DNA from: an uncultured virus (IMG/VR IMGVR_UViG_3300031994_000077) | Lineage: Duplodnaviria > Heunggongvirae > Uroviricota > Caudoviricetes | Strand: one strand, 5' to 3' | IMG/VR virus record: IMGVR_UViG_3300031994_000077 | DNA length: 64,000 bases | In this document: in pieces, positions 25,399 through 41,700 of the stretch | Position numbering within the stretch: the stretch's first letter is position 1 | Layout of the letters: each line of letters starts with the position of its first letter | Position numbers and translations under genes: made by a program | The notes under the pieces: generated by a model | What the model saw: only the letters and a program-made list of their open reading frames with translations | Database searches by the model: none | Told to the model about the DNA's origin: nothing

Positions 25399-25426
25399 TT
25401 GACATTTTTTATTTATATAGTATAAT
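25399..25426 (+). promoter_or_regulatory. sigmaA-type promoter of the inverted unit
   Basis: TTGACA-16 bp-TATAAT, 9 bp after the palindrome at 25371. Confidence 0.8.
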
Positions 25427-25449
25427 ACTATTGAAAGTGAGGGATAGAA

Positions 25450-25680: not shown

Positions 25681-25733
25681 GAGATAAGGGTTAGATGTTA
25701 AACATCTAAAAGAAAATAAGGCGCTTGCGCGCT

Positions 25734-26213
25734 TTATTCATTTGTCAACTCCTTTGCTTCATTTAGTACGAAAGAAATTTCTGTCCATCCTTCTGAGCAA
25801 TTGCCAAGTTCTTTTTTGAATCCTTCAAGTTCAAACTTATTCATCAATAGAGTGCGCATTTCTCCACCCCACCAAGTGCAATGGACTTTCCAGAAATGGC
25901 GGTCTTTCCTTTTGAGATGACGCTTTGCAAGGCTATAATTCCAACCCATACCATTGTCAAAGAAGTAAAGACATTGGTTCTTTTCATCCCATTTAGACAT
26001 ACGTGGGATGTAATAGTTCAGAATCTCGATGGCGCGCTCTTCGCTCCATACTTCTTTGCTGTTGCGCCATTCACGATATTTATTAATTAGAATATCGCCA
26101 ATCCATAAGGGGAACAGAATCACGCGCATAATCTTGTAACCATTCTTGCGCCACCACTTGCGCGCCTTGTGCTCCTTCTTGCCTTGCATTGCCTTGATAA
26201 CTTCATTAGTCAT
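25734..26213 (-). CDS. Hypothetical protein
   Basis: Start reassigned to MTNEVIK after AAGGA RBS; own promoter and terminator. Confidence 0.75.
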   Translation of the reverse strand: MTNEVIKAMQGKKEHKARKWWRKNGYKIMRVILFPLWIGDILINKYREWRNSKEVWSEERAIEILNYYIPRMSKWDEKNQCLYFFDNGMGWNYSLAKRHLKRKDRHFWKVHCTWWGGEMRTLLMNKFELEGFKKELGNCSEGWTEISFVLNEAKELTNE

Positions 26214-26466
26214 TGTTTTTATTTCCTTTCTTTGATGGCATAAGTATATCATATCTTTTAAAGGAAGTCAATAACTAAATTAGATGTTAAACATCTAAGT
26301 ATATATAGAAAATTAAAGGAAGATTAAATATCTTCCTCTTTATTTTTATGCTTAGGCTTTTTCTTGCGCTTATCTGGTATAACCTTTGTTATAGGAGAAA
26401 TAGCACCCCAGTCGCGCCGAATAACTTTATAAGCATCGTAATTTGTTTTCTCCTTTTTCTTCTTCA

Positions 26467-26769
26467 TCATAACTCCTCCCATTCTTCCCAGTTCTCACAA
26501 CCGCAAGCACTACACCAATCATCACAATCTGCGAAGGGATCATCAATATGGCAGACGCCGTTTTTATAATAGGGGCAATCTAAACCATTCACAGGACAAT
26601 AGGTTGTTTGTCCTTTATAAGTCCCTGCTTCGGCATCTCGAATCTGTTTGAATTTTTCTTCTTGAATCTGCTTGCTGAGGGCGTTCATGTTAGCGCAAAG
26701 TCTTTCAAATAACGTCATATACTCGTTATACTGTTTTTCTAACCGTTCAAGTGTTGTCATTTTATCCAA
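26467..26769 (-). CDS. Hypothetical protein with Cys-rich C-terminus
   Basis: Intact ORF with own promoter near 26790-26820. Confidence 0.7.
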   Translation of the reverse strand: MDKMTTLERLEKQYNEYMTLFERLCANMNALSKQIQEEKFKQIRDAEAGTYKGQTTYCPVNGLDCPYYKNGVCHIDDPFADCDDWCSACGCENWEEWEEL

Positions 26770-26799
26770 CCCCTTCTCTTTTATACCTATATTATATCA

Positions 26800-26940
26800 T
26801 TAATGATGCAACTTGTCAAGTACAAATTTAATTTTTCTCACTTTCTCATTTGCTTCATACCATTCGCCTTCCGTGCGCGCAAGGCTCCGCGCGCGAATAG
26901 CCTTGACATAAGCAAGAAAGAATCTCTGATAAGCTGTCAT
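26800..26940 (-). CDS. Small hypothetical protein
   Basis: Start reassigned to MTAYQ after AGGAG RBS. Confidence 0.6.
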   Translation of the reverse strand: MTAYQRFFLAYVKAIRARSLARTEGEWYEANEKVRKIKFVLDKLHH

Positions 26941-27046
26941 GTTTATCACTCCTTTTACTATGGCAAGTATATCATAGTATAGGGAAAAAGTCAATCAGGC
27001 GTATTAGATGTTTAACATCTAATATCTTGAAATGAAAAAAAAGGGC

Positions 27047-27376
27047 TTACGCCCTCTTGTAAGTATTCGGCTTGCCCTCAATCTTTACGACCTCGGACGC
27101 CCACAACTTAGTCACGCCATACTGTACGCGACCGCGCCCGAATCCGTCAGGCAGTTCATCCTTTACCGCGTCATACAGTTCCGCGATAGTCACGGGGGTA
27201 TCAGACAGCGCACCAATGATGATGTCGTGAACAGCGGTGTACTCTGCATCCTTCGCGGCTTTCTGCTCAGCACCGCGATTGATGTCAGCATCCAGTTCCG
27301 CAAGAATAGCGTCCTTGTTCTCAAAGTCGATGTTAGACAGGGCGGCGGCGATAGCGATCATGGTGTTCTTCTTCAT
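27047..27376 (-). CDS. Array family A protein (coiled coil plus winged-helix-like C-terminus)
   Basis: T..ELY..VKD.LP..F...VQ...K.N.Y motif shared by four genes; leader hairpin upstream. Confidence 0.8.
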   Translation of the reverse strand: MKKNTMIAIAAALSNIDFENKDAILAELDADINRGAEQKAAKDAEYTAVHDIIIGALSDTPVTIAELYDAVKDELPDGFGRGRVQYGVTKLWASEVVKIEGKPNTYKRA

Positions 27377-27625
27377 ACTAATAACCTTTCTGGTTTTTAG
27401 GTCTTTTCCTTGACCTCTTTTGTGCCTTTATTATATCATAGGTTCAGCGGTCTGTCAAGTGGTTTTTGAAAAAACTTTTTAAGTTTTTTTCAAATTTTCC
27501 GTTCTTGGCATCTCGTCCTTGCCCCTCGTGACAATTATTATTATACTCAGATTTTAGGAAAAATCAAGTCTTAGTATTAGATGTTAAACATCTAAGTGTT
27601 TGAAAAAGAAAATGCCCCGAAGGGC

Positions 27626-27898
27626 TTATTCAAGATGAACAGTTACTGGAGAAATGTAACAAAAATTTTTAATACACCATTTAACCCAAGTTTCATAATG
27701 AGCTTTTGTCCAACCAGATTCTTTTTCATAAACTTCCATATTGTCACTATTTACATATTCACTATAATAATCATTTTTATGCGCTATGGCATACTCATAA
27801 ATAGTTTTTTCTGCAAGTTCTTTGTTCTTAAAAACTTCTCCATCAAAGCAAGAGAAACGAGAGTCCTCAGAATCCCATTTAACAATTACATATTCCAT
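27626..27898 (-). CDS. Hypothetical protein
   Basis: Start at MEYVIV after AAGGA. Confidence 0.65.
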   Translation of the reverse strand: MEYVIVKWDSEDSRFSCFDGEVFKNKELAEKTIYEYAIAHKNDYYSEYVNSDNMEVYEKESGWTKAHYETWVKWCIKNFCYISPVTVHLE

Positions 27899-28027
27899 TT
27901 TTATTTCATCCTTTCTTTTTTCTTTTTGTATATGTAGTATATTAGATTTTAGGATAAAAGTCAAGATAATCTATTAGATGTTTAACATCTAATATTGGTA
28001 AGAAAAATCGCCCCGAAGGGCGATGGA

Positions 28028-28432
28028 TTAGGCAAGGCGGTAGTGGTTCGGGCAATTCTTCTTTTCCGTGATAATCACGTTCGGCTTCATCTCGCGCAGA
28101 AGAACGGCCTGCACCTTGTTCGCGGTAAAGTTATCGGGAAGATTATCCTTTGCGCGCTCGTAAATCTCAACGGCGGTATAATCATCGTTGACGCTCATGG
28201 CATCGGTAAGAATCGGGATAACAGTCTCCATCAGCAGAGCGCGGGCTTTCTGATTCTTCTCACGGCGCACCGCGTTCTCCTTGTCCTTCTGGGCCTGCGA
28301 CTTCTCCCAACGAGGGGCTTCCGCGCGCTTCTTCAAAGTATCACGCAGAGCAGTAAGGCGCTCGATAGTCTCGGCGGTCAGGTTGTTGTTGATAGCGTTC
28401 TCGATAGCGGTAACATAGGTCATCTTCTTCAT
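28028..28432 (-). CDS. Array family A protein
   Basis: TAVEIYERAKDNLPDNFTANKVQ...PNHYRL. Confidence 0.8.
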   Translation of the reverse strand: MKKMTYVTAIENAINNNLTAETIERLTALRDTLKKRAEAPRWEKSQAQKDKENAVRREKNQKARALLMETVIPILTDAMSVNDDYTAVEIYERAKDNLPDNFTANKVQAVLLREMKPNVIITEKKNCPNHYRLA

Positions 28433-28690
28433 AACTTTTATCCTTTCTGGTTTGTGGAGTGTCCTTCTCCTTTGATGGTCTTATTGTATCATAGTTTCGG
28501 GAAATTGTCAAGGGTTTTTCAAAAGTTTTTTTATGTTTTTTCGGGGACTTGCAAGTGAGGTTTTCGTATTGCGCCTATCCTATCGCATTACTGCGTGTCT
28601 GTGCATGGCACTTTATTTTCCTCTCCCCGTGAAACATCTTGATTATATCATAGTTTTAGGAAAGTGTCAAGTGATTTTTTTATTAAGTTT

Positions 28691-28777
28691 TTGTTACAAG
28701 GGAGAGCAGTCGTTACTTTTTTTACTGACCTCACGGGAGCGCCTTTATAGAGGACTCTTCGCTCTCCCTTGGAACAA
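28691..28777 (-). ncRNA. Candidate small structured RNA
   Basis: Directly downstream of a palindrome-linked promoter, no ORF; closed by CAAGGGAGAGC/GCTCTCCCTTG. Confidence 0.4.
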
Positions 28778-29032
28778 TTATAGTATAGCATAAGAGGATG
28801 GAAAAGTCAACCATTTGATATTAGATGTTTAACATCTAATATATAAAAGAAGGAAGAATATTATTCTTCCTTCTTATTCAATTTTTCAAGTTCTCTAATT
28901 TTTCTAAAACACTCATATACACCATAGACATCATTTTCTGCGAGGCACTTTTTCAATTTCTTCTCATAGTAACGGATTGAACGCACTTCACCCTTTTTCA
29001 TTTCTTTTTATCTCCTCTCTAAGTAAGCTAAG

Positions 29033-29215
29033 TTATTTATATTTATTTCTATTTAGGTCAACATCGCACCAGAGGATGAGGTCTCCGTATGGGCTTATAT
29101 AAAATTCATCTTCTGGCGTTTCATTCAAATAATTATATTCACTTTCAGAATATATGGCGACTTTTGCATCCTGTGGGTACTCTTTAAGTTTTTCTCTTAA
29201 TTCTTTTACTGTCAT
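29033..29215 (-). CDS. Small hypothetical protein (MTVKEL family)
   Basis: Similar N-terminus to 29249..29389. Confidence 0.65.
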   Translation of the reverse strand: MTVKELREKLKEYPQDAKVAIYSESEYNYLNETPEDEFYISPYGDLILWCDVDLNRNKYK

Positions 29216-29248
29216 TTTATTTGGCTCCTCTTTTATTATATACTTTTT

Positions 29249-29389
29249 TTAACTGATAGAAACAATATTATTATTAGAATTGATTGTAACTTCTTCAACA
29301 TCAATCAGCGGGCCGCCATCGCCTTGAATCATTACCGTAGCGTTAGAGGGAAACTGTTCAAGATACTGAACTAATTCTGTAACTGTCAT
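29249..29389 (-). CDS. Small hypothetical protein (MTVTEL family)
   Basis: MTVTELVQYLEQFPSNATV with GAGGAG RBS; below the track cutoff. Confidence 0.6.
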   Translation of the reverse strand: MTVTELVQYLEQFPSNATVMIQGDGGPLIDVEEVTINSNNNIVSIS

Positions 29390-29714
29390 TTTCTTATCTC
29401 CTCTCTTGTTGTGGCTTTATTATATCATTTATTGTAATCATTGTCAACTATTCTTTTATAAAAATTTTTTTCATCTTCTGACATTTCATCATATCGTTTA
29501 CGAGCATCTGGATCGGCGTAAGGATAGTAAATATAACCAACGGCAATCAAAGCGGCTTCAAAATCAATCTCATTTTTAATTTGATATTTGTCCTTTTCCA
29601 TATTTATTTCTCTCCTTTCTTGTTGTGACTGTATTATAGCATTTTATGGGAAGAAAGTCAAGAGCGAATAATTAGATGTTAAACATCTAATTTGTTTTTA
29701 AAATTAAAGAGGGA

Positions 29715-30467
29715 TTAAAATCCCTCAGTAAAGTTGTACGTGTCATTTCTTACATACTTTTTACAATACATCCCTTGATGAATAACTTGCCCGTTGATTT
29801 TAATGGTATACGGTTTCATCTGCGGTCGTGTAAGAATTTTTACAACCTTATAATCTGTTCCTTCTTCCGCTCCGCACATAGCAAAGCAATACTGCAAAAT
29901 TTTTGTTTCAATATCTACATCATACGCGCCCATGTGTTCTTCATTAAAATCGGTATCATTCATCAAGAATCTGTAAACATTTTCCGCGCTTCCTGAATAG
30001 TTGCCCGAATCAGTAAACAATTCATTATCTTCACAAAATTGCTTATACTCAGGGGCGCAAGTGATAAACTCACTGGCATAGCCCCAAATATCGTGAATTG
30101 GAATATTTTCAAGGGGGTTATTGCACTTGAACCAATCACAATTAAAGGTAAAAACTTTATCATCAAATGCGCTATTATAGGCATAAGCGTCTGTCACTTC
30201 ATACTGCTTAATATCCCGATACATTGCGCGCATAATGTATCCCCATTTGTCCATAACGGCTTTCTTGCTTCTCATAAGCTGGATATATAGAGGGCGCTTT
30301 TCCTTATAATAGGCACTCTCAAACAGAGGGAGATTATGCCAAACTTGCTCGACAACAAAGTGCTTGCGCGTTACTTCTTCGCCGTCTTTGATAATCTTAT
30401 AGCCGAGGTCATAGCAGAACGGGCGGTCAAGAGAGGTAGTTTCAGTATCAAATACAAGGTAGGACAT
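29715..30467 (-). CDS. DEDD (DnaQ-like) 3'-5' exonuclease
   Basis: FDTETT, AYNSAFD and EEHMGAYDV motifs. Confidence 0.85.
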   Translation of the reverse strand: MSYLVFDTETTSLDRPFCYDLGYKIIKDGEEVTRKHFVVEQVWHNLPLFESAYYKEKRPLYIQLMRSKKAVMDKWGYIMRAMYRDIKQYEVTDAYAYNSAFDDKVFTFNCDWFKCNNPLENIPIHDIWGYASEFITCAPEYKQFCEDNELFTDSGNYSGSAENVYRFLMNDTDFNEEHMGAYDVDIETKILQYCFAMCGAEEGTDYKVVKILTRPQMKPYTIKINGQVIHQGMYCKKYVRNDTYNFTEGF

Positions 30468-30587
30468 TTTAAAAATTCCTTTCTGGTTTTTTAGTGTTTT
30501 CCTTCACTTCATGGCTATATTATACTATGAATTAGAAAAAAGTCAATAAGAATATTTAGATGTTAAACATCTAATATAGTTAATAGG

Positions 30588-30941
30588 TTAGTTTGCGCTA
30601 ACCCATTCATCACTATCATAATCATACTTATATAAACCAACTTTATTTGGCGGGAAAATCAGACCCAAATTATCACGAATAAAAGTAATGAAATCATCAG
30701 ACAATTCGGCATTGATATTTATATATAAACTTTGCTTATAAGCTAAATTAAACCATGCCATTGTCCCTTCAATGTTAAGGCCATCAGGGCAAAACATTGG
30801 ACGTTTCATCATATCCAATAAAAGTACATGATTCTTGAATTCATCCATTAAGGATACAGCGCGGCTCTCATACTCTTTACACTCTTTGAGAGAATCAAAT
30901 CTTTCGCCATCATAAGCAATATAAATTACTTCAACCTTCAT
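30588..30941 (-). CDS. Hypothetical protein
   Basis: YIAYDGERFDSLKECKEYE N-terminus; GAGGAG RBS. Confidence 0.7.
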   Translation of the reverse strand: MKVEVIYIAYDGERFDSLKECKEYESRAVSLMDEFKNHVLLLDMMKRPMFCPDGLNIEGTMAWFNLAYKQSLYININAELSDDFITFIRDNLGLIFPPNKVGLYKYDYDSDEWVSAN

Positions 30942-30995
30942 AATAATTAGCTCCTCTGATTTTATATAAGACGTACAACGCCTTATTCTTTCATG

Positions 30996-31304
30996 TTAAT
31001 TAAGTAAGATAATGCCAGATTTATAGCCTAGACCATAAAGATTGTTAAGTGCTTCAAGGCAGTCGCGTTTGTAAGTGAAATAATAGAAGCGGACATTATG
31101 CTCAGTAATGTATCCAAGAAAGTTACAATCATAATCTAATATAGAAGAATCTTCTGTTCTGCCCGCGAAGGCAATCCTTTTCCCGCGCTTACCGTTTTCA
31201 ATTCTAATCATGTAATTACGCTTGCCATTAACAATCTTGCTCCCTAACTGCTCAGTAACTATCACATCATTAAGCGCGCGGCCCATTTCTTTTAAAGTCA
31301 TCAT
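30996..31304 (-). CDS. Array family C protein
   Basis: SKIVNGKRNYMIRI...YFTYKRD shared with 38058..38336. Confidence 0.7.
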   Translation of the reverse strand: MMTLKEMGRALNDVIVTEQLGSKIVNGKRNYMIRIENGKRGKRIAFAGRTEDSSILDYDCNFLGYITEHNVRFYYFTYKRDCLEALNNLYGLGYKSGIILLN

Positions 31305-31432
31305 TTTTTTATCCCTCTTTCTTTTGTTATTGGTTTCTTTTGATGGTGTTATTATATTACAGATTAGGGGAAAATGCAAGAGTTAGAGTTAGATGTTTAA
31401 CATCTAATATTTGCTAAAAGAAAAGAGAGGGC

Positions 31433-31723
31433 TTACGCCTTCTCCTTCGCCCTCTCTTTCTCGGCTTTCTTCTCTGCCTTGATGCGCTTATCTTCCTGCC
31501 ACGCTGCCGCGGCTTCGTAGGGGTCAAACGCGGGAGAAATCTTTGTTGCCTTGTTTGCCTTAGTCTTTACGGAAATCTCCGTCCAAAACTCTTCGCCCTC
31601 TACATTCTGCAAGATGGCGAAAGAGTTATCAGCAAACTGAACGGCTTCGTTCTCTTCGAGGATGGACATAATCAGGTTCAGGGTGTTCGCGCGGGCAACG
31701 TTCTTTCTTTCGGTAGTAGTCAT
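31433..31723 (-). CDS. Array family B protein (Lys/Ala-rich C-terminus)
   Basis: Start reassigned to MTTTERK after the CCAGAAAGG leader; similar to 34709..35116. Confidence 0.75.
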   Translation of the reverse strand: MTTTERKNVARANTLNLIMSILEENEAVQFADNSFAILQNVEGEEFWTEISVKTKANKATKISPAFDPYEAAAAWQEDKRIKAEKKAEKERAKEKA

Positions 31724-32045
31724 ATTATTTTGTCCTTTCTGGTTTAATGGGTTTTCCTTCCCTTTGATGATGTTATTATAGCATGGTTTCGGGAGATTGT
31801 CAAGCACTTTTTTGAGAAATTTGCAACTTTTTTCGTAGCAGGAAAAGTTGCGGAAACCTGTCCGCTTCATGCCCTGAGACGACAGGCAATTCACGGCAAC
31901 CCTTCTACTTATCATCTCCTTCGGTTCGTCCCTTCATCTGACATACATAGTATACTATAATTTTTGAAGAAAGTCAATTATTGAAATTAGATGTTAAACA
32001 TCTAATTTATTTTATGCAAAAAAGAAAACCACCCGAAGGCGGTAA

Positions 32046-32163
32046 TGGTGGAGAGTGGGAGAATTGAACTCCATCCCTCATGGGACGACCCCCTTTTGCA
32101 TGGGTCTACGCAATCATCTTTCGATTTACCGCGGTGGCTCCCCTGATGCCACGTTCACTCCCC
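32046..32163 (-). ncRNA. Non-canonical tRNA-like RNA, 118 nt, CCA end, G3-U70 and A73
   Basis: 5' GGGGAGTG pairs with CACTCTCC-ACCA 3'; T-arm GGAG-TTCAATT-CTCC; four internal hairpins; followed by a terminator near 32018-32044. Confidence 0.7.
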
Positions 32164-32178
32164 ATAAAAGGGAAGGGC

Positions 32179-32574
32179 TTACGCCCCTTCCTTCAAGCGG
32201 TAGGTATTCGCCTTGCCCTTAGTCTCGATAATGTCCAGTTCGTCACGCATCTCACGCAGGAGAACGTTCTGAACCTTCGCAACCGAGAAGTCCTCGGGCA
32301 GTTCATTCTGAACCATTCCAAACAGTTCCTTCACGGTTACACCCTGCAACGTGTGGGACAGACCCTCGCGCAGGATGGGCGCAACCTTAGCAACGAGTTC
32401 GGCACGAGCGGCGGCAGTCTTAGCCTTGCGCGCAGAGTTCGCGGCTTCCTTCTGCTCAGGCGTGCGCGTGCGCTTCTGGTCAAGCTGGGCAATCATGGCT
32501 TTAATCACGGTCTTAGCATCGGTATCATCAGCCATGGTAGAGAGGGCGAGGGTGAGAGCATCTTTCTTAGTCAT
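32179..32574 (-). CDS. Array family A protein
   Basis: TVKELFGMVQNELPEDFSVAKVQ...ANTYRL. Confidence 0.8.
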   Translation of the reverse strand: MTKKDALTLALSTMADDTDAKTVIKAMIAQLDQKRTRTPEQKEAANSARKAKTAAARAELVAKVAPILREGLSHTLQGVTVKELFGMVQNELPEDFSVAKVQNVLLREMRDELDIIETKGKANTYRLKEGA

Positions 32575-32832
32575 ATCATTTACCTTTCTGGTTTGTTGAG
32601 GTTTTCCTTCCTCTGTTGTGTCCTTATTTTATCATGGACTTTGAATTTTGTCAAGAGGTTTTTCAAACTTTTTTTTGATTTTTTTCAATCATGGCGTTTC
32701 CTCTTGCTTGTGTCATGCCGGTGTGCTGTTCGCTCCTGACATTGTTTATTATACTCATTTTAGAGAAAAGTGCAAGAGGAGGGATTAGATGTTTAACATC
32801 TAACTATATAACAGGCACGAAGCCTGTCAGTC

Positions 32833-33018
32833 TTAATAATATTTTGTAGTATGGATATATTTCCCGTCTTGTGTAAAGATTAGTTTACGGGACGCTAATT
32901 CTAATGCGGGATAAATTGGAGCAGGCGTGTCGTGTTCTTCATCATCAATATATTGATCTTCGTATTCAGTTTCTTTTGCATCCCATAAAATACTTTTAAG
33001 AATTTCATAATCAGTCAT
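32833..33018 (-). CDS. Hypothetical protein
   Basis: Intact ORF with RBS. Confidence 0.6.
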   Translation of the reverse strand: MTDYEILKSILWDAKETEYEDQYIDDEEHDTPAPIYPALELASRKLIFTQDGKYIHTTKYY

Positions 33019-33023
33019 GATTT

Positions 33024-33179
33024 TTATTTCCTTTCATTATTAAGAACTTTTAATTCTTCATAGGAAGTCTTTTTTATAACTCGTCTAATGGTCGAAGTAT
33101 AAAGACCGCAATGATTAAGCAAAAAACAGATAAGACAATTGATAATACGATCTCGAATATCAAGATAAATACTATACAT
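33024..33179 (-). CDS. Hypothetical protein
   Basis: Start at MYSIY after AGGAG. Confidence 0.55.
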   Translation of the reverse strand: MYSIYLDIRDRIINCLICFLLNHCGLYTSTIRRVIKKTSYEELKVLNNERK

Positions 33180-33198
33180 ATTTTTCTCTCCTTTGCTT

Positions 33199-33453
33199 TT
33201 ACCATCCAGCACAGCCACAACAAATATCGCAAGTCTCTATAATAATACGAGGATCCTTATATAATTCTTTTAATATTTTATCCTTAGTATAACATTGAAG
33301 CTCTTTAAAAGGCTCTCCGTAGTCAAAGAAATTACTATGATTCTCATCATCAAAGGCACAAGCTTTAAGATACAAATATTGTCCATTTTCTGATTCCCAA
33401 TAAGAAATATTTTCTTTCTGCAAATAATTTTTAATTTCTTTAAATTTCATCAT
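33199..33453 (-). CDS. Hypothetical protein
   Basis: Intact ORF with AGGAG RBS; ends CDICCGCAGW. Confidence 0.65.
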   Translation of the reverse strand: MMKFKEIKNYLQKENISYWESENGQYLYLKACAFDDENHSNFFDYGEPFKELQCYTKDKILKELYKDPRIIIETCDICCGCAGW

Positions 33454-33550
33454 TTTTTTTATCTCCTTTGCTTTTGTGATGTAAGTATATCATAATTGTT
33501 TTAGGATTGCAATATCAGATATTAGATGTTTAACATCTAATAAAAAATGC

Positions 33551-33775
33551 TCACTCCTCAACGGGTGAGCCAATGATTTCATAATAGCAGTTATCATCAG
33601 ACGTATACAATTCAACGCCAGCAGGAGTTTTATTTGTTTCAGCAACGAAAGTCCAATTGTTATAAATCGCATTTTCTGCTGCTTTGATGCCTTGTTTCTT
33701 TGAAGCATAGACACCAACGAGATAGGTATCAACCGCGTCATGTTCAAGGACTACCCACACTTTTTTATTCTTCAT
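33551..33775 (-). CDS. Hypothetical protein
   Basis: Single-gene unit between two palindromes. Confidence 0.7.
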   Translation of the reverse strand: MKNKKVWVVLEHDAVDTYLVGVYASKKQGIKAAENAIYNNWTFVAETNKTPAGVELYTSDDNCYYEIIGSPVEE

Positions 33776-33891
33776 AATCTTATTCTCCTTTTCAATTTGT
33801 AATTGTATTATAGCATACTTTTAAGAAAAGTCAAGCCACAGATATTAGATGTTTAACATCTAATTTCTAAAATAAGAAAACAAGAGGTATA

Positions 33892-34575
33892 TTACCTCTT
33901 GTTATATAATACTCGTTCCATCTTCTTATGTGTGCGGTATGCCTTGGCGACAATTTCTTTCTCAATCATAACGTCTTCAAGCGCTGTATGACTTTCTTCA
34001 AAAGTCAAATCATTGATAATGAATCTATACAGAACTTCGGCAGTCATGCGCGGGCGCGGCGTCTTGTGCGCGGTCATAAATCCATTTTTATTACAGAACT
34101 TAATATATGATGGAGTTTTTGCAAAAGTTTTCGCCATCTTCATACTATCCCAGACTTCGATATTGGGGAGGGCGCGCACGTAATCAAGGCCAGTCAAATA
34201 ACGGACTGTTGTATTTAATGCATCAATATCAAATGCTGCATTGTGCGCGCAGATAGCAATGATATTATATTTGCGGCAGAGTTTCGCAATCTCATTCATA
34301 ATCTCAAAGAAACTGCGCGCGGTGCGGCGATTGTTTGCTAAATCATCATAATATTGCGGCAACTTATTAGCATAATAGGCGCTCTGCATCTTTTCGCGCT
34401 CACCGAAAAAGATTTCACTAACTACGTTAGAAGATGAATAAATCACTTCGCCAGTAGAGGGATAGACAACTGCATAGCCAATATCATAGGTCAGATTATT
34501 ACCACGGGTAACTGCATCGCAGGGCGTAATGTTACAAGTCTCAGTATCCAGTACCATAATTGCGTGCTTCTTCAT
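33892..34575 (-). CDS. DEDD (DnaQ-like) 3'-5' exonuclease, paralog of 29715..30467
   Basis: LDTET, AHNAAFD and ESHTALED motifs. Confidence 0.85.
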   Translation of the reverse strand: MKKHAIMVLDTETCNITPCDAVTRGNNLTYDIGYAVVYPSTGEVIYSSSNVVSEIFFGEREKMQSAYYANKLPQYYDDLANNRRTARSFFEIMNEIAKLCRKYNIIAICAHNAAFDIDALNTTVRYLTGLDYVRALPNIEVWDSMKMAKTFAKTPSYIKFCNKNGFMTAHKTPRPRMTAEVLYRFIINDLTFEESHTALEDVMIEKEIVAKAYRTHKKMERVLYNKR

Positions 34576-34708
34576 TCCTTTATTGCCTTTCTGGTTTGTA
34601 GTGTTGTTCCTTCACTTCATGGGTAGAGTATATCATAAAGTTATGGGAAAAGCAAGTCTTGATGTTAGATGTTAAACATCTAATCTTATGAAAATGAAAT
34701 AACGGTTG

Positions 34709-35116
34709 TTACACCGTTACTTCTCTGTCAAGGTACTGGTTACTGTCATCGGCTTCGGCCGCGGCCTTCTTAGTCGCGCGCAGGGCGCGCTTCTGTTCGC
34801 GCAACCTTGCGGCGGCTTCCTTCTTCTCTGCGCTTGCGGCCTTCTTCGCGGCCTTTTCCTTGCATTCTGCTTCGTAGTCCTCTGCGGCCTTGTAACCATC
34901 GTAGGGAGTATAACCGCCGTTACCTGTCCGAGTGCCACGAGGGATAGCAATCTTTACGGTTACATAACGCTCATTACCTTCTGCATCGAGGAGGGGAAGC
35001 GCGAACTCACCCGCGCCAGTCTGCGGAATAGCAACGTCATACTTCTGGCCGAGAAAATCACGAACGGCTTCATAGATTTCAGAACGGAGAGCATTTTCAA
35101 GAGCGGCTTTAGTCAT
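34709..35116 (-). CDS. Array family B protein
   Basis: FALPLLDAEGNERYVTVK...YDGYKAAEDY then Lys/Ala-rich tail. Confidence 0.75.
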   Translation of the reverse strand: MTKAALENALRSEIYEAVRDFLGQKYDVAIPQTGAGEFALPLLDAEGNERYVTVKIAIPRGTRTGNGGYTPYDGYKAAEDYEAECKEKAAKKAASAEKKEAAARLREQKRALRATKKAAAEADDSNQYLDREVTV

Positions 35117-35533
35117 AATTTTTGCCTTTCTGGTTTTTTAATGTTTTCCTTCATTTGTTGATGTAATTATAGCATACAGTTTCGGGATTGTCAAGAGGTT
35201 ATTTTGATTTTTTTTATTTTTTTTATTTCTTAACCTTTTGAACAATTATATTATAACATAATTTCAGAAAAAAGTCAATAGTTTTTTCTTACAAAAATCG
35301 CGTGTTATTTTTGTGCTATTTTTATGCCGGTGCCTCACCCTCTAAATGAGAGAAAAATGCCGTAAAGGATGAACGCGATTACAAAAGAAAGGATTCCTTG
35401 CCCGATGGTAGCCATATTATATTCCTCTTTTCTTTTTTCTTTTTGTAATTGTATTATACACTATACAAGAATAAAAGTCAATATGAAGTATTAGATGTTT
35501 AACATCTAATCTTTCTTACTAAAAAGAAGAGGA

Positions 35534-35869
35534 TTAGCTCCTCTTCTTGTATACATAAACCTTGTCATTAGACTTGCGGTCGATTACATCGCTCCAATAA
35601 TGGTTAAGGCCATAACTCAGTTTGGAACGGCTGAAATTTTCGGGGAGAGCATCCTTCACGCTTTCATAAAGCTCTGCCGCGGTGACTTCTTCATCGGTCA
35701 TATTTGCGAGAACAACGGCCTTCGCGCGCTCGTAAAGCGCCTTATTCACGGCGGCCTTTTCCGCACCCTTGTTAAGTTCTGCTTCAAGTTCGGCCTTGAT
35801 TTCATCAAGATTCGTCAGAGTAGCGCCATTCAGATAGTTGACGAGAGACTGCATAGTGGACTTCTTCAT
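35534..35869 (-). CDS. Array family A protein
   Basis: TAAELYESVKDALPENFSRSKLSYGL. Confidence 0.8.
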   Translation of the reverse strand: MKKSTMQSLVNYLNGATLTNLDEIKAELEAELNKGAEKAAVNKALYERAKAVVLANMTDEEVTAAELYESVKDALPENFSRSKLSYGLNHYWSDVIDRKSNDKVYVYKKRS

Positions 35870-35946
35870 AATAAAACCCTTTCTGGTTTGTAAGAGTTTT
35901 CCTTCTCTTGTTTACATTATTATTATATCACAGGATTTTGTTTTTG

Positions 35947-36138
35947 TCAAGTATGATCTCGTAAAAAATTGTGAAGTTCATACAGGATTCGTGTTAAGTC
36001 TGCATACAATTGATTTTCTTCTTCTGCGTCTGCATCTTCAATATCTTTAACCCATTCATTGACTAAGTTATAAAAGTCAATAATCTTCTGACGGTCTTGC
36101 CCTTCCATAGTTACTGTGATAGTCTTTTCAATCTTCAT
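35947..36138 (-). CDS. Hypothetical protein
   Basis: Intact ORF with AGGAG RBS. Confidence 0.65.
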   Translation of the reverse strand: MKIEKTITVTMEGQDRQKIIDFYNLVNEWVKDIEDADAEEENQLYADLTRILYELHNFLRDHT

Positions 36139-36248
36139 ATCTTTTAGCTCCTTTCTTTTATGGCTATATTATAATACAAGAAAAGAGAAAAGTCAACTTT
36201 TAGAATTAGATGTTAAACATCTAATCCTTAAAAATAAAAAAACGGCAT

Positions 36249-36755
36249 TCAGGAAGAATGCCGCATAAATTCATTACAAGCGTAATCAATAACGATGCCA
36301 ATGTTATTTTTATAACCAATATTCCACTCGTGTAAATCTTCCACATTATTATATACATATTCTTCTTCATCAATGCTCCAATTGGTCATTCTATCTGAAC
36401 CGATTCCGCCAATTCTGGGCATAATGTAGAACGCGCGCCCATGGCATACAAACTTTGTGATTTTAGCAAAGAGATATTCATATCCATCATCTTCCGCGCG
36501 CTGATAAAATTCGCATTCATCTTCACATCCGCCAAAATATTGAATTTTTGTGGGATTATAGTCAATTTTGACTACATAGTCAGACGTAATCAGAACAACA
36601 CGGCAAGCGCCAGATTCTACACGTACATGACGTTTTTTTGCTTCATTATAACGCTTAATTGCTTTTTCAAAATCATCGGGCATATAACAATTTTTAAGAT
36701 ACTCTGCAATCTGCTGAATAAACTTCTTTGCGCGGACTTCATAACTTGTTTTCAT
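36249..36755 (-). CDS. Small protein-kinase-like (PKL-fold) protein
   Basis: SGACRVV (Gly loop), VVK, DLHEWNIG (catalytic loop) and IDYA. Confidence 0.65.
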   Translation of the reverse strand: MKTSYEVRAKKFIQQIAEYLKNCYMPDDFEKAIKRYNEAKKRHVRVESGACRVVLITSDYVVKIDYNPTKIQYFGGCEDECEFYQRAEDDGYEYLFAKITKFVCHGRAFYIMPRIGGIGSDRMTNWSIDEEEYVYNNVEDLHEWNIGYKNNIGIVIDYACNEFMRHSS

Positions 36756-36870
36756 ATTAGCGCCCTTCTTTCTTTTAGTTGCCTACATTATAACACGTTT
36801 CGGGAAAAAGTCAACAGAGAGACTTAGATGTTAAACATCTAAGTTTTTAAAAATGAAATAAAGGGTGTTA

Positions 36871-37308
36871 TTAACCCTTTATTAAATTTTGTAATACTTC
36901 CATAATATCGCAAGGTTCATAACTTTCGCCGCCCCAATTTGTGCGGTTTTGCGCTTCATCATCAAAGAGGATGCCATCACCGCAAGTTTCCCATTTATTG
37001 ATGCCGTATTTTGTAATTTTTATATAATTCCACTCAACACTCGGCAGATGCTTTTCCAACCAGCTTCTTTTTGTTTCAGCAACTATTTCATTGTAGCTTT
37101 CCGTCCCGCTCTTGCTTAGCCAGCTAATAATCCCAATCTCATAGCCAGCTCGTTGAAGCGTGTTCAGCTTGCGGGCAAGCTGTGACAGATTGACCAGCGG
37201 GCGCGCGACTGCGTAGGGCGTGGGGTCTGATGCGATAAGCATATCAAGCCAGTTATTCACGCCGTAGAGGTCTGCGATAGTGCCGTCCATATCAAACCAT
37301 ATCTTCAT
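36871..37308 (-). CDS. HAD-family phosphatase (5'(3')-nucleotidase-like)
   Basis: FDMDGTIADL, K..WL.KHLP and LFDD motifs. Confidence 0.8.
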   Translation of the reverse strand: MKIWFDMDGTIADLYGVNNWLDMLIASDPTPYAVARPLVNLSQLARKLNTLQRAGYEIGIISWLSKSGTESYNEIVAETKRSWLEKHLPSVEWNYIKITKYGINKWETCGDGILFDDEAQNRTNWGGESYEPCDIMEVLQNLIKG

Positions 37309-37587
37309 TTTCTTTTTATTTCCTTTCCCTTTGATGGTGATAGTATAGCATAGTAAAAGGGAAAAGTCAACGGAAGGGATTAGATGTTAAACATCTAATA
37401 TTATTAGGGAGTGGAATTACTCCCACCCTGTTTCATACTCATTATTATGTTCTTCAAGGTATTTATAGAAGTTTTCCCAATCTTCTTCCAATTCCTTTAA
37501 TTCTTCCTGCGAATAACCTTCCCAAATATCATCTGACATATTATATATCTCCTTTTTTGTTGTTTGGTTCTTTAATTTTAAAAATTG

Positions 37588-37935
37588 TCAATTATTATTA
37601 GAAAAGAACTCACGAATGTTAAACCATTTATCTTCTATTAGATTACCAATTTCATCAATGGTTCCGCCCCATTCGTTTGTCTTGCATCGTACATACTTGC
37701 CTTTCAAATCTTCCCAATATTCTACGCCAACTGTATTCATAATTTTCATTATAGCTACAAGTCCATTACCAGAATTAGCTTTAAATTCTTTAGCGCCTAA
37801 ATATCCATGACCGATACAATATCCGCCATAACAACAACCCCAGCCATCACCTTCAAGTGTTAAATCAAAAGTTAAGCAACCATGATCGGCCATAGAAATA
37901 CGCGTATCTATAATTTTTGCGTTCTCAATATTCAT
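37588..37935 (-). CDS. Hypothetical protein
   Basis: Intact ORF with AGGAG RBS. Confidence 0.75.
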   Translation of the reverse strand: MNIENAKIIDTRISMADHGCLTFDLTLEGDGWGCCYGGYCIGHGYLGAKEFKANSGNGLVAIMKIMNTVGVEYWEDLKGKYVRCKTNEWGGTIDEIGNLIEDKWFNIREFFSNNN

Positions 37936-38057
37936 ATTTATCGCTCCTTTTTTCGGTAGTTTCTTTCTTTATCGTGATTAGAGTATACACTATAATAAGG
38001 AAAAAGTCAACAAGAGAAATTAGATGTTTAACATCTAAGACAAAAACGGCTTAGGGA

Positions 38058-38336
38058 TTATTCAATCCCTAAGTTATTCAAAATTTGAAGCGCTTCTTTA
38101 TAATCTTTCTTGTACGTGTAGTAAAACCAACGTGTATGATTTTTACAGATAATAGAAAGATATTCACCATTGAAAATTTTTCCGCGTCCGAAGCCGCCTG
38201 CGTAGGTGATTTTATAATGTCCGTTTCTCATGTCAATTCTAATCATGTAATTATTACGCCCGTCAACTTTTGATACTAATTCACTGAGACTAGTTTCTTC
38301 AATCAATTCCGCGCACATTTCAAGAATTTTATTCAT
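38058..38336 (-). CDS. Array family C protein
   Basis: SKVDGRNNYMIRID...YYTYKKD. Confidence 0.7.
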   Translation of the reverse strand: MNKILEMCAELIEETSLSELVSKVDGRNNYMIRIDMRNGHYKITYAGGFGRGKIFNGEYLSIICKNHTRWFYYTYKKDYKEALQILNNLGIE

Positions 38337-38708
38337 GGTTTTTATTTCCTTTCTTTTGATGGCGTAAGTATAACATAATGGGAAAAAGAAGTCAAGAGAA
38401 AAAGTTAGATGTTAAACATCTAATTTAAAATGAAATTCGGGATAAATTAAAATTATATATGTTATAGAATAGTAAAAATGAAATAAAATGAAATTACAGG
38501 ATTATAATGAAATAATAGTTATATATAAGAAAAGATATGAAACAAAATGAAATTCTGCATTTTTCTTTTACTTTTTCTTTACTTATATTATATAATATAA
38601 AATAAAAATTGTCAATATTTATCATTAGATGTTTAACATCTAATGTTATTTATTAAGTTTGTTATAAAAATAACAATACCGTTTAATAAAAAAGAAATAG
38701 GCTTTCGC

Positions 38709-39044
38709 CTATTTCCAAATGGTTTTTCCGTTCTGAGTGAAGAACGTTTGATTCCTGTCAACCTTTTTCCTGAGATAGGAAGGAATTTTCTTCGGCCCGC
38801 CGTATATCGCAACCAATTCCCTATAAGTTGTTACATACATTGTAATAATTGTATCTTTTCTTTCATTCTTTACAATCGTGATTCCTGTATCTGTTACGCA
38901 AGTATAAGTGCCTTGTTTGCCCTCTCTAATCTGCGCGGGACTGCGGAAATATTTCTCAATAATTATTTGACCGATTCCAATTTCATTAACGATATGGGAA
39001 ACTCTGTTTGCTCTTTGTACTTCGCAATGATAACTCATTTTCAT
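38709..39044 (-). CDS. Hypothetical protein apparently ending in a true TAG stop
   Basis: The TAG lies in terminator hairpin ATAGGC-GAAA-GCCTAT followed by a T-run. Confidence 0.7.
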   Translation of the reverse strand: MKMSYHCEVQRANRVSHIVNEIGIGQIIIEKYFRSPAQIREGKQGTYTCVTDTGITIVKNERKDTIITMYVTTYRELVAIYGGPKKIPSYLRKKVDRNQTFFTQNGKTIWK

Positions 39045-39178
39045 TTTGTAATACCAACCTTTCTTTTGTTGTTTGGTTCTTTCTTTTTACGATTGTATTA
39101 TATAATGAAATGGGAATTTTGTCAACGGATAGAATTAGATGTTAAACATCTAATTTGGGAATGAAATGAAATGCGGTT

Positions 39179-39427
39179 TCACCGCATTTCAGTAATTGCC
39201 ATTTTTTCATTTTCCATTTTGATTTCATCGGAAATGTATACACGGTCTTTGAAAAAGAATGCGATAACTTCGCCTGTTTCACTATTCATAACGTCTGTTT
39301 CAATACCGCGATTTTCAAACATAGAACGTGCGGTATAGATTGCGCCGAAAGCCGTTTCAAAAGTAAAACCGTAATCATAAACCTTGTGATTGAGATAGCA
39401 AGTGATTTCGTACTTCATGTTTTTCAT
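39179..39427 (-). CDS. Hypothetical protein
   Basis: Single-gene unit. Confidence 0.7.
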   Translation of the reverse strand: MKNMKYEITCYLNHKVYDYGFTFETAFGAIYTARSMFENRGIETDVMNSETGEVIAFFFKDRVYISDEIKMENEKMAITEMR

Positions 39428-39792
39428 TTCCTTTCTTTTTCTTTTGTGATTGTATTATATTCTATTATGGGATAAAAGTCAAGTATTTTTTTTAGATGTT
39501 AAACATCTAATTTGAAAATGAAATGAGAGAATTAGTATTCTCTCATTTCAACGCTATATTTTAGTCCCCATTCTTGTGCAAGTTTACTAGATTCTGCGAA
39601 CTTTCGGGATTTTTCTGCCTCTTCAAAAGTTGCGAACGGCCCATCAAAAACAAAATCAAATTCGTCAATTACATACCATACGGACATTTTTATTTCTCCT
39701 TTATTTGATAAGTTAATTATATTATACTTTTAGGATTTTGTCAATAGGCATTTTTATATATTTAATATTTAAAATATAATATGAAATTCCAA

Positions 39793-39996
39793 TTATTTAG
39801 TGTTATAACTAAATAAGTAACGTACTCCTACACATATTATAAAGAAAGTCCAATAATTGAAATGCGCGGCATTGAAAGTATCTGCAAGAACGCGATTCCA
39901 TACAATAGTAAAAAGTGCGGCAGGAAAGGCTACATGTGCGAGAAAATTACCAATAATATGAGCGATAATTTTGCAACATTTTTCTTTATTTTCCAT
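39793..39996 (-). CDS. Small membrane protein
   Basis: Start at MENKEK after AGGAG. Confidence 0.6.
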   Translation of the reverse strand: MENKEKCCKIIAHIIGNFLAHVAFPAALFTIVWNRVLADTFNAAHFNYWTFFIICVGVRYLFSYNTK

Positions 39997-40124
39997 AACT
40001 AATTCTCCTTTTGGTTTTAGGACTTTTTTCTTATTCTTTATTGTGATTATATTATAATAGTTTAGAAATGAAATGTCAAGTTTTATTTTAGATGTTAAAC
40101 ATCTAAAATAAAATAAAAGAGGGA

Positions 40125-40319
40125 TTACTCCCTCGTATCTCTCCACTCCCAAGGAAAAAGAAGTTGCGTATGAAATGGCCTACCATAGTCAATCATGTTA
40201 AAAAACTCTGCGATTTTGCTGGTGATAAATACGTGCCACGGAACGGCGGAAATATACGTTTCTCCATCATCATATACTTCAATGATTGCCTTACGATACG
40301 CCATAATTTTCCGCAACAT
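40125..40319 (-). CDS. Hypothetical protein
   Basis: Single-gene unit with leader hairpin. Confidence 0.65.
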   Translation of the reverse strand: MLRKIMAYRKAIIEVYDDGETYISAVPWHVFITSKIAEFFNMIDYGRPFHTQLLFPWEWRDTRE

Positions 40320-40595
40320 TCTTAATCTCCTTTTGGTTTTTAAAAGTTATCCTTCTTTTATTTTGTAACTATATTATATAAGAGTAATTGAAAGAAGTCA
40401 ATAGATAAGAATAGATGTTAAACATCTAATATTATACAAGTCTTTTATATCTTTAATTAAATAATAATAATCGCCTTGTCTTGTCGTGCGCTTATACCTT
40501 ATTGCTATCTATTTAACCTTCTTATCCTATCAAAGGTTTTATCTATTACTTAACAATTAAGTTACGTCATAGCATTGTATGCTATGACGTATTAC

Positions 40596-40835
40596 TTACC
40601 TATACTTCTCCATGCTCCGAACCATTCCATAGATAAAGTCATTCAATTCTTCTTCTGTATACACTATCATATCATTGATTGATTCATTGTGTATAACAAT
40701 CTCATAGACACGACTGTAAGTGTACTTTCTCCAATGGCGCGCCCGCATCTCTCGTGCGATAGCATCTTCAATGAACTCCCACATCGGTGTACCATAGTAG
40801 ATAGCGGTGTAAACATTTGATAGCTTAATCTTCAT
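40596..40835 (-). CDS. Hypothetical protein
   Basis: AGGAG RBS; terminator TACGTCATAGCA...TGCTATGACGTA. Confidence 0.65.
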   Translation of the reverse strand: MKIKLSNVYTAIYYGTPMWEFIEDAIAREMRARHWRKYTYSRVYEIVIHNESINDMIVYTEEELNDFIYGMVRSMEKYR

Positions 40836-41231
40836 GGCGTTTAGCTCCTTTGCTTTTTCTTCTTCGCTTAGATTATATCACATTTTGTAGCTTGTGTCAA
40901 TACTTTTTCTCGCTTGCCAGCTTGCTTTTTAGTTGTAGCTTGCCAGCTTGCTTCCAGCTCGCCTGCGCAATAGGCGGCCCTGTGGTGCGCTGTTTGGCCT
41001 TCGCTTGCCCGCGCCTGCCCTGCGCTGTTCGGTGGCGCGCCCATGGGCTTCCACACAATTTGTATGTGATGCTATTTGTGTGTATCATCTTCATCTTTTT
41101 GCCCTCTTTTCGTCTCTTTTCATAGTCTATTATACACTTTTTTACGCAAAAGTCAACGAGGGAAGTTAGATGTTAAACATCTAATATATACATTTTGTGT
41201 GTGTTAGTTAGATAAAACTAACATATGTGTG

Positions 41232-41333
41232 TTATATAACTTAAGTTATATATTCTTGTATGTATAACTTAAGTTATATATTATGTATCATATAACTTAA
41301 GTTATTTATCGTGTTATATAACTTAAGTTATTT
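41232..41333. repeat. Four copies of palindrome TATAACTTAAGTTAT(A)
   Basis: Near 41232, 41263, 41291 and 41316; a fifth copy is at 24661. Confidence 0.8.
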
Positions 41334-41391
41334 ATCCGTAACATGTTAGATGTACCTAACAGATACGCATAGAAAAAGGGTCTATTGCTTT

Positions 41392-41700
41392 TCAGCAATA
41401 GACCAGAGACATGTCAGACCATTTAAGAATGCTGATTTGATTGCATTTTCTTCCAATATCGAGCGCTTCCTTTTTAGTGCTAACACGCTTACTTTTATCA
41501 ATATAATAAATACCGTCACTGTACCAGACGCCACAAGTGCCATTATATTGCTTTATGGCTTTCATAGCTTCCAGCGGCGTTTTGCACTCTTTGCCCTCCG
41601 TAGCGACTTGATAACCGCTCTTATACGTTATAGCTTTCCCATTTTTCAAGGTCAATCCGTCATTATTTTCCAGCTTGCGAATCGTGCGAATATTAATCAT
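41392..41700 (-). CDS. Hypothetical protein
   Basis: GGAGG RBS, intact ORF. Confidence 0.75.
   Translation of the reverse strand: MINIRTIRKLENNDGLTLKNGKAITYKSGYQVATEGKECKTPLEAMKAIKQYNGTCGVWYSDGIYYIDKSKRVSTKKEALDIGRKCNQISILKWSDMSLVYC

Follow-up and report, generated by a model that had tools for sequence, protein, structure and literature searches.

A probable mini-pseudoknot abutting the Shine-Dalgarno sequence in a gene array of uncultured ruminant-gut phages

How do unrelated genes of one phage come to carry the same leader, and what reads it? The question is raised by a 64,000-nucleotide (nt) stretch of DNA, here called the window, from an uncultured virus of the Caudoviricetes (IMG/VR record IMGVR_UViG_3300031994_000077). 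Nine copies of a cassette lie on its minus strand between positions 27385 and 40401, each with a promoter, a covarying hairpin, a tail, a Shine-Dalgarno sequence (SD) and an ATG in that order. A sequence-only reading had noted these hairpins, with AAGGA in their loops, and proposed a translational regulon or enhancer read by host CsrA or by a phage RNA-binding protein. The analysis presented here argues, with a probability of roughly 0.85, that the element is an H-type mini-pseudoknot of ~30 nt, in which the loop would pair with the tail and the 3' strand abuts the SD AGAAAGG.

Pairing within the leader

The cassette has a regular layout in the window. The -10 box is followed after 10-13 nt by a stem of 3-6 base pairs (bp), whose loop of 7-9 nt begins with AAGGA. 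The 12-mer AAACCAGAAAGG stands 1-3 nt 3' of the stem, and the ATG follows after another 8-10 nt. The start region is A-rich and unpaired, and the spacing of the motif to the ATG is fixed. The 12-mer has eight exact matches in the window, starting at 27385, 28442, 30478, 31734, 32583, 34586, 35125 and 35878, where 0.30 would be expected by chance and 100 shuffles gave two at most; a one-mismatch match at 59233 is not a copy of the motif. The ninth copy has the variant tail AAACCAAAAGG (40329-40339). All nine were recovered where the sequence-only reading had placed them, and its stems and loops agreed copy by copy. New beyond that reading are a tenth, hairpin-less AAACCAAAAGG, a consensus promoter ahead of each copy, and the pairing of the loop GG with the CC of AAACC.

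What supports the hairpin itself? The minimum free energies of the window hairpins range from -0.2 to -6.6 kcal/mol, with z scores of -2.7 to +0.5, and give no support. The hairpins are supported by covariation and not by folding energy. A scan of IMG/VR with the pattern AAGGA-N8-13-AAACCAGAAAGG matched at least 192 contig stretches with at least 207 instances, and related viral contigs hold at least 190 distinct cassette copies. Among the matches listed, 182 of 190 distinct copies have a stem of at least 3 bp, with 32 different stem sequences; the mean stem length is 4.27 bp, compared with 1.3-1.5 bp when the 3' arms are swapped among copies. In an in-register alignment of 48 rows, each of the four core pairs is unpaired in only 0-3 rows. 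The covariation score of this first stem (stem 1) is 0.788 against 0.213 for shuffles, none of 500 shuffles reaches it, and it collapses when the partners are slid. The covariance test that the sequence-only reading had suggested thus speaks strongly for its stems; the Rfam search proposed alongside gave no match. Applied to the window, a covariance model of the 48 copies finds exactly nine leaders, at expectation values (E) of 1.6e-7 or lower. The next match, at 40007-40042, has E 0.079, and all remaining ones have E of at least 0.69.

The two arms of stem 1 differ in composition. The 5' arm is almost always purine-rich (AGTG, GAGG, AGAG, GGGG) and the 3' arm pyrimidine-rich, as at 27416-27412 and 32613-32610; the opposite orientation is essentially absent, promoter-less copies included.

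To which part of the gene is the motif tied? A promoter scoring at least 9/12 is present in 170 of 190 copies with enough flank, and 154 of those 170 have the TG extension. The distance from the -10 box to the stem floats between 8 and 15 nt, while that from GG to ATG is mostly 7-11 nt, which links the motif to the SD and ATG and not to the promoter. The predicted transcription start of the phage copies lies 2-8 nt ahead of stem 1. Complete relatives of 184-189 kilobases (kb) have 7-10 copies each, clustered within about 9-10 kb. The AA and AAA positions and AAACC are nearly invariant, and in copies found by the model and not by the pattern AAGG and CC are invariant, with single changes at other positions. 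The second loop varies in length and sequence, and almost every conserved unpaired base is an adenine. A G hardly ever stands at loop position 6, which argues that the loop is not selected for a longer match to the anti-SD.

Since the canonical GG and CC are invariant, their pairing is testable only with non-canonical copies, and IMG/VR was therefore scanned with both dinucleotides free. One position was forced to be non-canonical, and matches were filtered for a stem of at least 4 bp and an ATG at 6-13 nt. Five distinct non-canonical copies passed, and in all five loop position 3 is complementary to the second C position. Their loop/tail pairs are AG/CT (two copies), CG/CG (two) and CA/CG (one), in the alleles AAAGAAAA with AAACTAG (two), AACGAAAA with AAACGAG (two) and AACAAAAA with AAACGAG (one, the second pair being A.C). 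None of the filtered copies has a changed tail with an unchanged loop, or the converse. A scan with 7-nt loops gave at least 11 filter-passing copies; of those listed, nine have both a promoter and loop-tail complementarity (one AG/CT, eight CG/CG), and they represent six stem 1 sequences from several contigs. Among the matches listed, no promoter-bearing copy in these scans is an exception to loop-tail complementarity. Over 53 distinct rows, pair 13:30 is GC in 48, CG in three, AU in two and unpaired in none; pair 14:29 is GC in 52 and unpaired in one.

Different alleles also occur side by side in single phages. One (G036) has a canonical and four AG/CT leaders, each internally matched; a second (G037) has one canonical, two CG/CG and one CA/CG leader, each internally matched at position 3; a third (G038) has two CG/CG leaders. 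A change in the loop GG is thus matched by a change in the tail CC, from G:C to A:U or C:G, which argues for an H-type pseudoknot. Its predicted first stem has 3-6 bp, and AA serves as loop 1. Loop positions 3-4 (GG) would pair with the CC of AAACC as a 2-bp stem 2, loop 2 is A(A/C)A(A), and AAA preceded by 1-3 variable bases makes up loop 3. AGAAAGG follows the 3' strand of stem 2 without a spacer.

Several observations weigh against the pseudoknot. Two filter-passing copies (L581 and L557) are non-complementary; both lack a promoter and are probably chance matches. In G036, a match at L415 7560-7598 has stem 1 and AAACCAG with an unrelated 10-nt loop, ACGTGTACAA, that has no GG, and it is the only promoter-linked copy seen that is unable to form stem 2. 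Stem 2 itself consists of two pairs, one of which covaries while the other is invariant bar one A.C mismatch. Few events may account for the variant alleles, the minimum being one change from G:C to A:U and one from G:C to C:G.

Pseudoknots are already known from leaders at ribosome sites; the loop-tail pairing is new, as are the size, the copy number and the genes headed here.

What reads the fold?

Is the motif confined to phages? In prokaryote genomes (596 gigabases) the pattern matched at least 126 stretches, mostly by chance, and at least 26 instances pass a filter for stem and ATG, some of them listed twice in overlapping loci. The titled instances are almost all from metagenome-assembled genomes (MAGs) of Clostridia, among them Clostridiales RUG095, Acutalibacteraceae, Ruminococcus and Christensenellales. 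In five MAGs the model matches are limited to 1-7 contigs each and are not chromosome-wide. In two MAGs the copies belong to an integrative element, at L331 8250-18701 (G006) and L332 867-3836 (G007), that sits directly behind gapA, the type I GAPDH gene of the host. The element encodes a XerC/D-like tyrosine recombinase, followed by two or three paralogues of an unknown family of 125-145 amino acids (aa), each preceded by a knot that is intercistronic and lacks a promoter. In G006 it further holds a superfamily 2 (SF2) helicase gene, an ArdC-like anti-restriction gene and a RadC-like gene. None of the integrative-element proteins has a homologue in the window. Because the integrative copies lie between genes without a promoter, the motif follows the ribosome site and not the 5' end of the transcript; because two kinds of mobile element use it, a host reader is the simplest candidate, and a plausible one.

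The SF2 (ResIII/DEAD-like) helicase is common to the G006 element (L331 12637-13935) and to a complete phage relative, G002 (40443-41693, equal to L342 443-1693), with 22% identity over 396 aa and E 3e-15, and it adjoins knot-leader arrays in both carriers. As a common partner it was rejected, as the window has no homologue.

No partner other than the ribosome is known to be shared by all carriers, which favours a module that raises and secures initiation. The best explanation as a whole, at a little under even odds, is that the pseudoknot leader serves as a ribosome-read expression module. Somewhat more tentatively, the element may be a structure-read translation start module that depends on the host ribosome and also protects the 5' side. 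With such a module, mobile elements would obtain immediate expression of chosen genes in gut Clostridia. Its first effect would be to offer an open SD beside a compact fold, with the SD:anti-SD helix stacking on stem 2; its second would be to close the 5' side of the ribosome site sterically against 5'-exonucleolytic decay. An off-switch by occlusion is not expected, because the knot leaves the SD unhidden, and tertiary contacts or a partner would be needed, because the hairpin is too weak alone. The proposal agrees with what the cited part of one account says of mRNA stabilisation in Firmicutes without RNase E, where 5' structure and a bound ribosome are common stabilising determinants in Bacilli (PMC3997798).

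Could the ribosome itself complete the pseudoknot? In this form, which is possible and rather doubtful, the SD would pair with the last seven bases of 16S rRNA, starting exactly at the end of stem 2. The 3'-terminal nucleotide of 16S rRNA would lie flush on stem 2, so that stem 1, stem 2 and the SD:anti-SD helix would form one continuous helix; the 30S subunit would lock the otherwise unstable 2-bp stem, which would raise 30S affinity and shield the 5' side. AGAAAGG is complementary to the last seven bases of a 16S tail ...CCUCCUUUCU, and in Bacillus the mature 16S end is ...CUUUCU-3'. In two genomes from the family of one motif-bearing MAG the 16S gene ends in GGATCACCTCCTTTCT, which may not be the host's mature end. 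Two findings count against the proposed ribosome-read module. AGAAAGG is also the SD at genes without the motif (7 of 15 in the window, 22 of 29 in G002), so that the terminal-anti-SD register is not special to the motif; and copy 9 (AAACCAAAAGGAG) departs from this register, its SD being shifted. A complementarity of AAACCAG to internal 16S sequence was dropped, CTGGTTT being present in only one of two relatives.

It is also unlikely, if conceivable, that the pseudoknot is the operator of a trans-acting protein, a repressor or activator encoded by the host or by the mobile elements, which would read the fold as T4 gp32 or E. coli S15 do and time the gene set. A protein partner would suit a hairpin too weak alone, the near-invariance of the AA and AAA positions and AAACC, and the marking of only 7-10 clustered genes per ~185-kb genome and not of all early genes. 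There is a precedent in the gene 32 leader of T4, T2 and RB69, described in the cited part of PMC3014915 as an H-type pseudoknot with coaxial stems, in a phage 5' leader upstream of an unstructured A-rich ribosome site. According to the same part, that knot precedes the start codon of a single autoregulated gene by 67 nt and has gp32 as its reader (PMC3014915). The present knot, by contrast, abuts the SD, has a 2-bp second stem and heads 7-10 unrelated genes per genome, and no protein partner was found for it.

The phage RNA-binding protein proposed by the sequence-only reading likewise failed to appear. CsrA and RegA were found in none of the five phage records (0/5 each), and a Pfam scan of 150 of the 204 eligible open reading frames (ORFs) of G002 (at least 70 aa; 257 called) contained none of the S1, KH, Hfq and CSD families. 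The integrative element and the window have no protein in common, the sole gene common to that element and G002 is the SF2 helicase without a window homologue, and the structural model of a family B protein (see below) is not an OB fold and has no PDB match. Among the products found in the G002 scan were RNA ligases, a Thg1-like enzyme, a kinase/HD protein, RNase H, PhoH and gyrase, but no regulator of a classical RNA-binding type. As a side observation, G002 (L342-L346) has an RNA-repair set of T4 Rnl1-like and Rnl2-like ligases, an AAA_33/HD kinase-phosphatase-like protein, a Thg1-like enzyme and cREC_REC, and further encodes PhoH, ClpP, gyrase A/B and a xanthine/uracil permease.

Might a small molecule be the reader? 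A very small riboswitch similar to preQ1-I, with a hairpin, an A-rich tail and a short second helix at the SD stabilised by a ligand, is improbable. In topology and size the motif matches the translational Tte preQ1-I riboswitch, whose P2, in the cited part of PMC4735710, includes the first two bases of the SD and closes only transiently when the ligand is absent. That text gives preQ1-I (RF00522) ~30-35 nt, a hairpin with an A-rich 3' tail and a short second helix beside or overlapping the SD (PMC4735710). The present motif shares this architecture, an H-type pseudoknot with an NNN-AAA-CC tail running directly into the SD, and its stem 2 is marginal by itself. However, no Rfam riboswitch model, RF00522 included, matches even at E <= 10 on a single leader. 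There are no conserved pocket-type bases, the conserved unpaired positions being nearly all adenines and the second loop variable, and the SD lies outside the second helix and is not sequestered by the fold. The downstream genes are unrelated in function (DNA-binding-like proteins, exonucleases, a nucleotidase, membrane peptides, integrative-element paralogues) and have no link to queuosine or preQ1.

There is similarly little to recommend the view that the hairpin alone matters, as a plain 5'-terminal stabiliser or insulator of the ribosome-binding site on a mobile promoter cassette, with the loop-tail pairing incidental. The stem does begin ~2-8 nt after the predicted transcription start in phage copies, and metagenome contigs break and rejoin at the cassettes (see below), as expected of recombining regulatory cassettes. 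Against this stand the matched double changes at loop position 3 and the second C position of the tail, with no promoter-bearing exception among the scan matches, the near-invariance of loop and tail, and the intercistronic copies, which are not at a 5' end. The closest parallels are the 5' stabilisers of Bacillus (the aprE 5' stem-loop, cryIIIA STAB-SD and the SP82 polypurine sequence), in which, as far as the cited part of PMC3997798 describes them, a 5'-proximal structure or SD-like purine run and a bound ribosome protect the message. Those are single leaders without a conserved pseudoknot, whereas here the SD-like loop is dispensable (AACGA alleles) and some copies are intercistronic.

CsrA and RsmA recognise a GGA in a hairpin loop near the SD, and the canonical allele looks like such a site: AAGGA stands in a hairpin loop ~23 nt ahead of the SD, and GGA is in the loop of all nine window copies. 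Across the family, however, GGA is not kept. True copies have AAAGA or AACGA loops with compensating tail changes, and because these alleles sit beside canonical ones, a GGA-requiring reader is excluded, CsrA and loop:anti-SD pairing alike. The SD is not a GGA site either, as AAAGG is followed, across the eight canonical copies of the window, by t, a, a, a, t, c, c and g. Neither csrA (PF02599; 0/5 phage records and 0/5 motif-bearing Clostridia MAGs) nor fliW (0/5 of these MAGs) was found, with positive controls, in MAGs that are possibly incomplete. Binding of the AAGGA loop and the SD by CsrA from the host, or by a homologue from the phage, can therefore be set aside as highly improbable. 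What stands of the earlier proposal is a cis element of translation start regions, common to a set of genes and fixed in its spacing to SD and ATG; the readers it named do not stand. Nor does the motif resemble a lambda nut site (boxA/boxB), a hairpin that an N-type protein reads and whose place is set by the transcription unit: the spacing here is fixed to SD and ATG and not to the promoter, and each gene has a single copy. No search aimed at an N-like protein was made for this comparison.

Leaders, genes and promoters of the window

Which genes carry the leader? The nine copies, all on the minus strand, are described here from leader 1 to leader 9; the loop is AAGGAAAA in six of them. Leader 1 (27385-27458; model E 5.7e-16) has a -35 box TTGACA at 27458-27453 and a TG-extended -10 box TATAAT at 27435-27430. 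Its stem 1 pairs AGGTC (27416-27412) with GACCT (27403-27399) around the loop AAGGAAAA, whose GG is at 27409/27408; the tail AAACC has its CC at 27393/27392, and the SD AGAAAGG (27391-27385) is followed 8 nt downstream by the ATG. The family A gene behind it (27047-27376, 109 aa) has a weak DUF6958 match (PF22278, E 6e-4, below the cut-off) and 91 homologues, all unnamed. Leader 2 (28442-28511; E 1.6e-7), with the promoter TTGACA-17-TG-TACAAT (28511-28483), stem GGAG/CTCC, loop AAGGACA, GG at 28464/28463 and CC at 28450/28449, heads a family A gene of 134 aa (28028-28432) homologous to the others.

Leader 3 (30478-30546; E 1.6e-15) has the promoter TTGACT-16-TATAAT (30546-30519), with the palindrome TAGATGTTAAACATCTA immediately upstream (30557-30573). 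It has the stem AGTG/CACT, loop AAGGAAAA, GG at 30502/30501 and CC at 30486/30485, and precedes the gene of a DEDD-type 3'-5' exonuclease paralogue of 250 aa (29715-30467; phrog_20187, E 1.5e-31; homologous to 33892-34575). Leader 4 (31734-31803; E 2.8e-9; TTGACA-17-TG-TATAAT, 31803-31775) combines the stem GGG/CCC with loop AAGGAAAA, GG at 31757/31756 and CC at 31742/31741. It sets the start codon of its family B gene, which has 96 aa from ATG 31723 (31433-31723) and 62% identity to a leader-bearing G002 gene. Leader 5 (32583-32654; E 1.3e-14; TTGACA-17-TG-TAAAAT, 32654-32626), with the stem GAGG/CCTC, GG at 32607/32606 and CC at 32591/32590, heads a family A gene of 131 aa (32179-32574) with homology to the others.

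The weaker promoter TTGCTT-17-TG-TATACT (8/12) belongs to leader 6 (34586-34655; E 3.2e-8), which has the stem AGTG/CACT, loop AAGGAACAA, GG at 34610/34609, CC at 34594/34593 and the palindrome at 34666-34682. Its gene encodes a DEDDh exonuclease paralogue of 227 aa (33892-34575; phrog_20187, E 3.6e-29; PADLOC DEDDh, E 5e-8). Leader 7 (35125-35194; E 2.5e-15; TTGACA-17-TG-TATAAT, 35194-35166; stem AATG/CATT, GG 35149/35148, CC 35133/35132) precedes a family B gene of 135 aa (34709-35116) with 58 unnamed homologues. Leader 8 (35878-35950; E 6.7e-16; TTGACA-17-TG-TATAAT, 35950-35922; stem AAGAG/CTCTT, GG 35902/35901, CC 35886/35885) precedes a family A gene of 111 aa (35534-35869), again homologous to the others. 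Leader 9, with the variant tail (40329-40401; E 4.4e-8; TTGACT-17-TATAAT, 40401-40373), has the stem TAAAAG/CTTTTA, loop AAGGATAA, GG at 40352/40351, CC at 40336/40335 and the palindrome at 40412-40428. Behind it is a small ORF of 64 aa (40125-40319), with the ATG 9 nt downstream of the tail and no family match.

A partial copy at 40007-40079 on the same strand has the promoter TTGACA-17-TATAAT (40079-40051) and the tenth tail AAACCAAAAGG (40007-40017), followed by an ATG. A stem was looked for and none was found, in line with the model match at E 0.079 mentioned above; the copy is either decayed or a tail-only variant.

The assignment of these genes to four members of family A, two of family B, two exonucleases and the ORF at 40125-40319, as the sequence-only reading had it, holds. 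Homology links all four genes of family A with one another (E 4e-25 to 6e-5) and likewise the two exonucleases (E 1e-17); the two family B genes have a weak direct match (E 0.097) and are connected via a relative. Besides families A and B, the leader-bearing genes of relatives encode exonucleases, a nucleotidase and small membrane proteins. In all, at least five gene families unrelated to one another carry the leader. For families A and B and the integrative-element paralogues, no function emerged from Pfam, PHROGs, NCBIfam, PADLOC or the ESM Atlas, nor from sequence and profile searches of the PDB. The family B protein of 34709-35116 was modelled by AlphaFold (pLDDT, the predicted local distance difference test, 90) with an N-terminal helix, a three-stranded sheet and a charged helix of 60 residues. 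The model is not an OB fold, and Foldseek comparison with PDB folds gave no match at E <= 0.001; the weak top rows include the Tn916 integrase DNA-binding domain.

What do the promoters have in common? Those of the nine leaders are near-consensus, of the TTGACA-17-TATAAT type. Six have a TG-extended -10 box and an A-rich upstream stretch, and in the other three the -35 box is TTGACT or TTGCTT and a 17-bp palindrome lies directly upstream. The leader is present at only nine of ~35 strong minus-strand promoters in the region of 25-43 kb, and the other genes have short leaders with SDs of the AAAGGAG type. The palindrome, TAGATGTT(A/T)AACATCTA, has 27 sites in 25372-41183, with a chance expectation of 0, typically ~10 nt upstream of the -35 box of minus-strand promoters of the TTGACT type. 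Three sites are at knot leaders and 24 elsewhere without a knot. It resembles an operator at which a dimeric regulator would act on a second class of promoters.

The cassettes also coincide with breaks in the genome. In many metagenome contigs of related phages, breaks and new joints fall exactly at the promoter-leader cassettes (window 27000-36500; runs X4 and X9), namely at 27.4, 30.5, 31.7, 32.6 and 35.9 kb, for example 27465>30552, 28799>31737, 31762>32647 and 32681>35204. It is as if the cassettes mediated a modular shuffling of the array genes, and the breaks recall the promoter-stem-loop cassettes of T4-type phages. The stretch occurs in sequencing runs of gut metagenomes from sheep, cattle and goat. 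In one sample, contigs from two RNA libraries span the region, promoters included, and carry neither start nor strand information; DNA runs peak at the same conserved cassettes as the RNA-library contigs.

Place among known RNAs and meaning

Does the motif belong to a described RNA family? In Rfam 15 no family reached its gathering score over the window and none had E <= 5 over the 14 kb with the leaders. Clostridium-PBP RNA (RF03091) has a similar order of -10 box, short hairpin, A-rich ...ACAGACAGGAGG and ATG; its loop and tail are different, and a score of 17.6 bits against a gathering score of 94.4 shows that the motif is not a member. CCAGAAAGG has some likeness to a PyrR site, and no PyrR match was obtained. 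Megablast of the 14 kb against cultured phages gave no match, a blastn search with a 37-nt leader against cultured phage and plasmid records gave chance-level partial matches only, and a literature search by motif sequence strings returned only unrelated papers.

Few RNA folds backed by compensatory change are as small as this motif, with its ~30 nt and its second stem of 2 bp. It is abundant, with at least 190 distinct IMG/VR copies, 7-10 per complete phage of ~185 kb, and further copies in an integrative element of Clostridia, and it is absent from Rfam 15. The genes it marks form strongly promoted, rapidly shuffling paralogue arrays of uncultured ruminant-gut phages, and the motif may explain how a naive host comes to express these genes. 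Clostridia are hard to engineer, and for them the motif also offers a compact and portable translation element. If the ribosome did complete the knot, this would be a new class of Shine-Dalgarno enhancer and a new principle in bacterial translation initiation, and the phages and integrative elements of gut Clostridia would be using the knot for immediate expression on entry.

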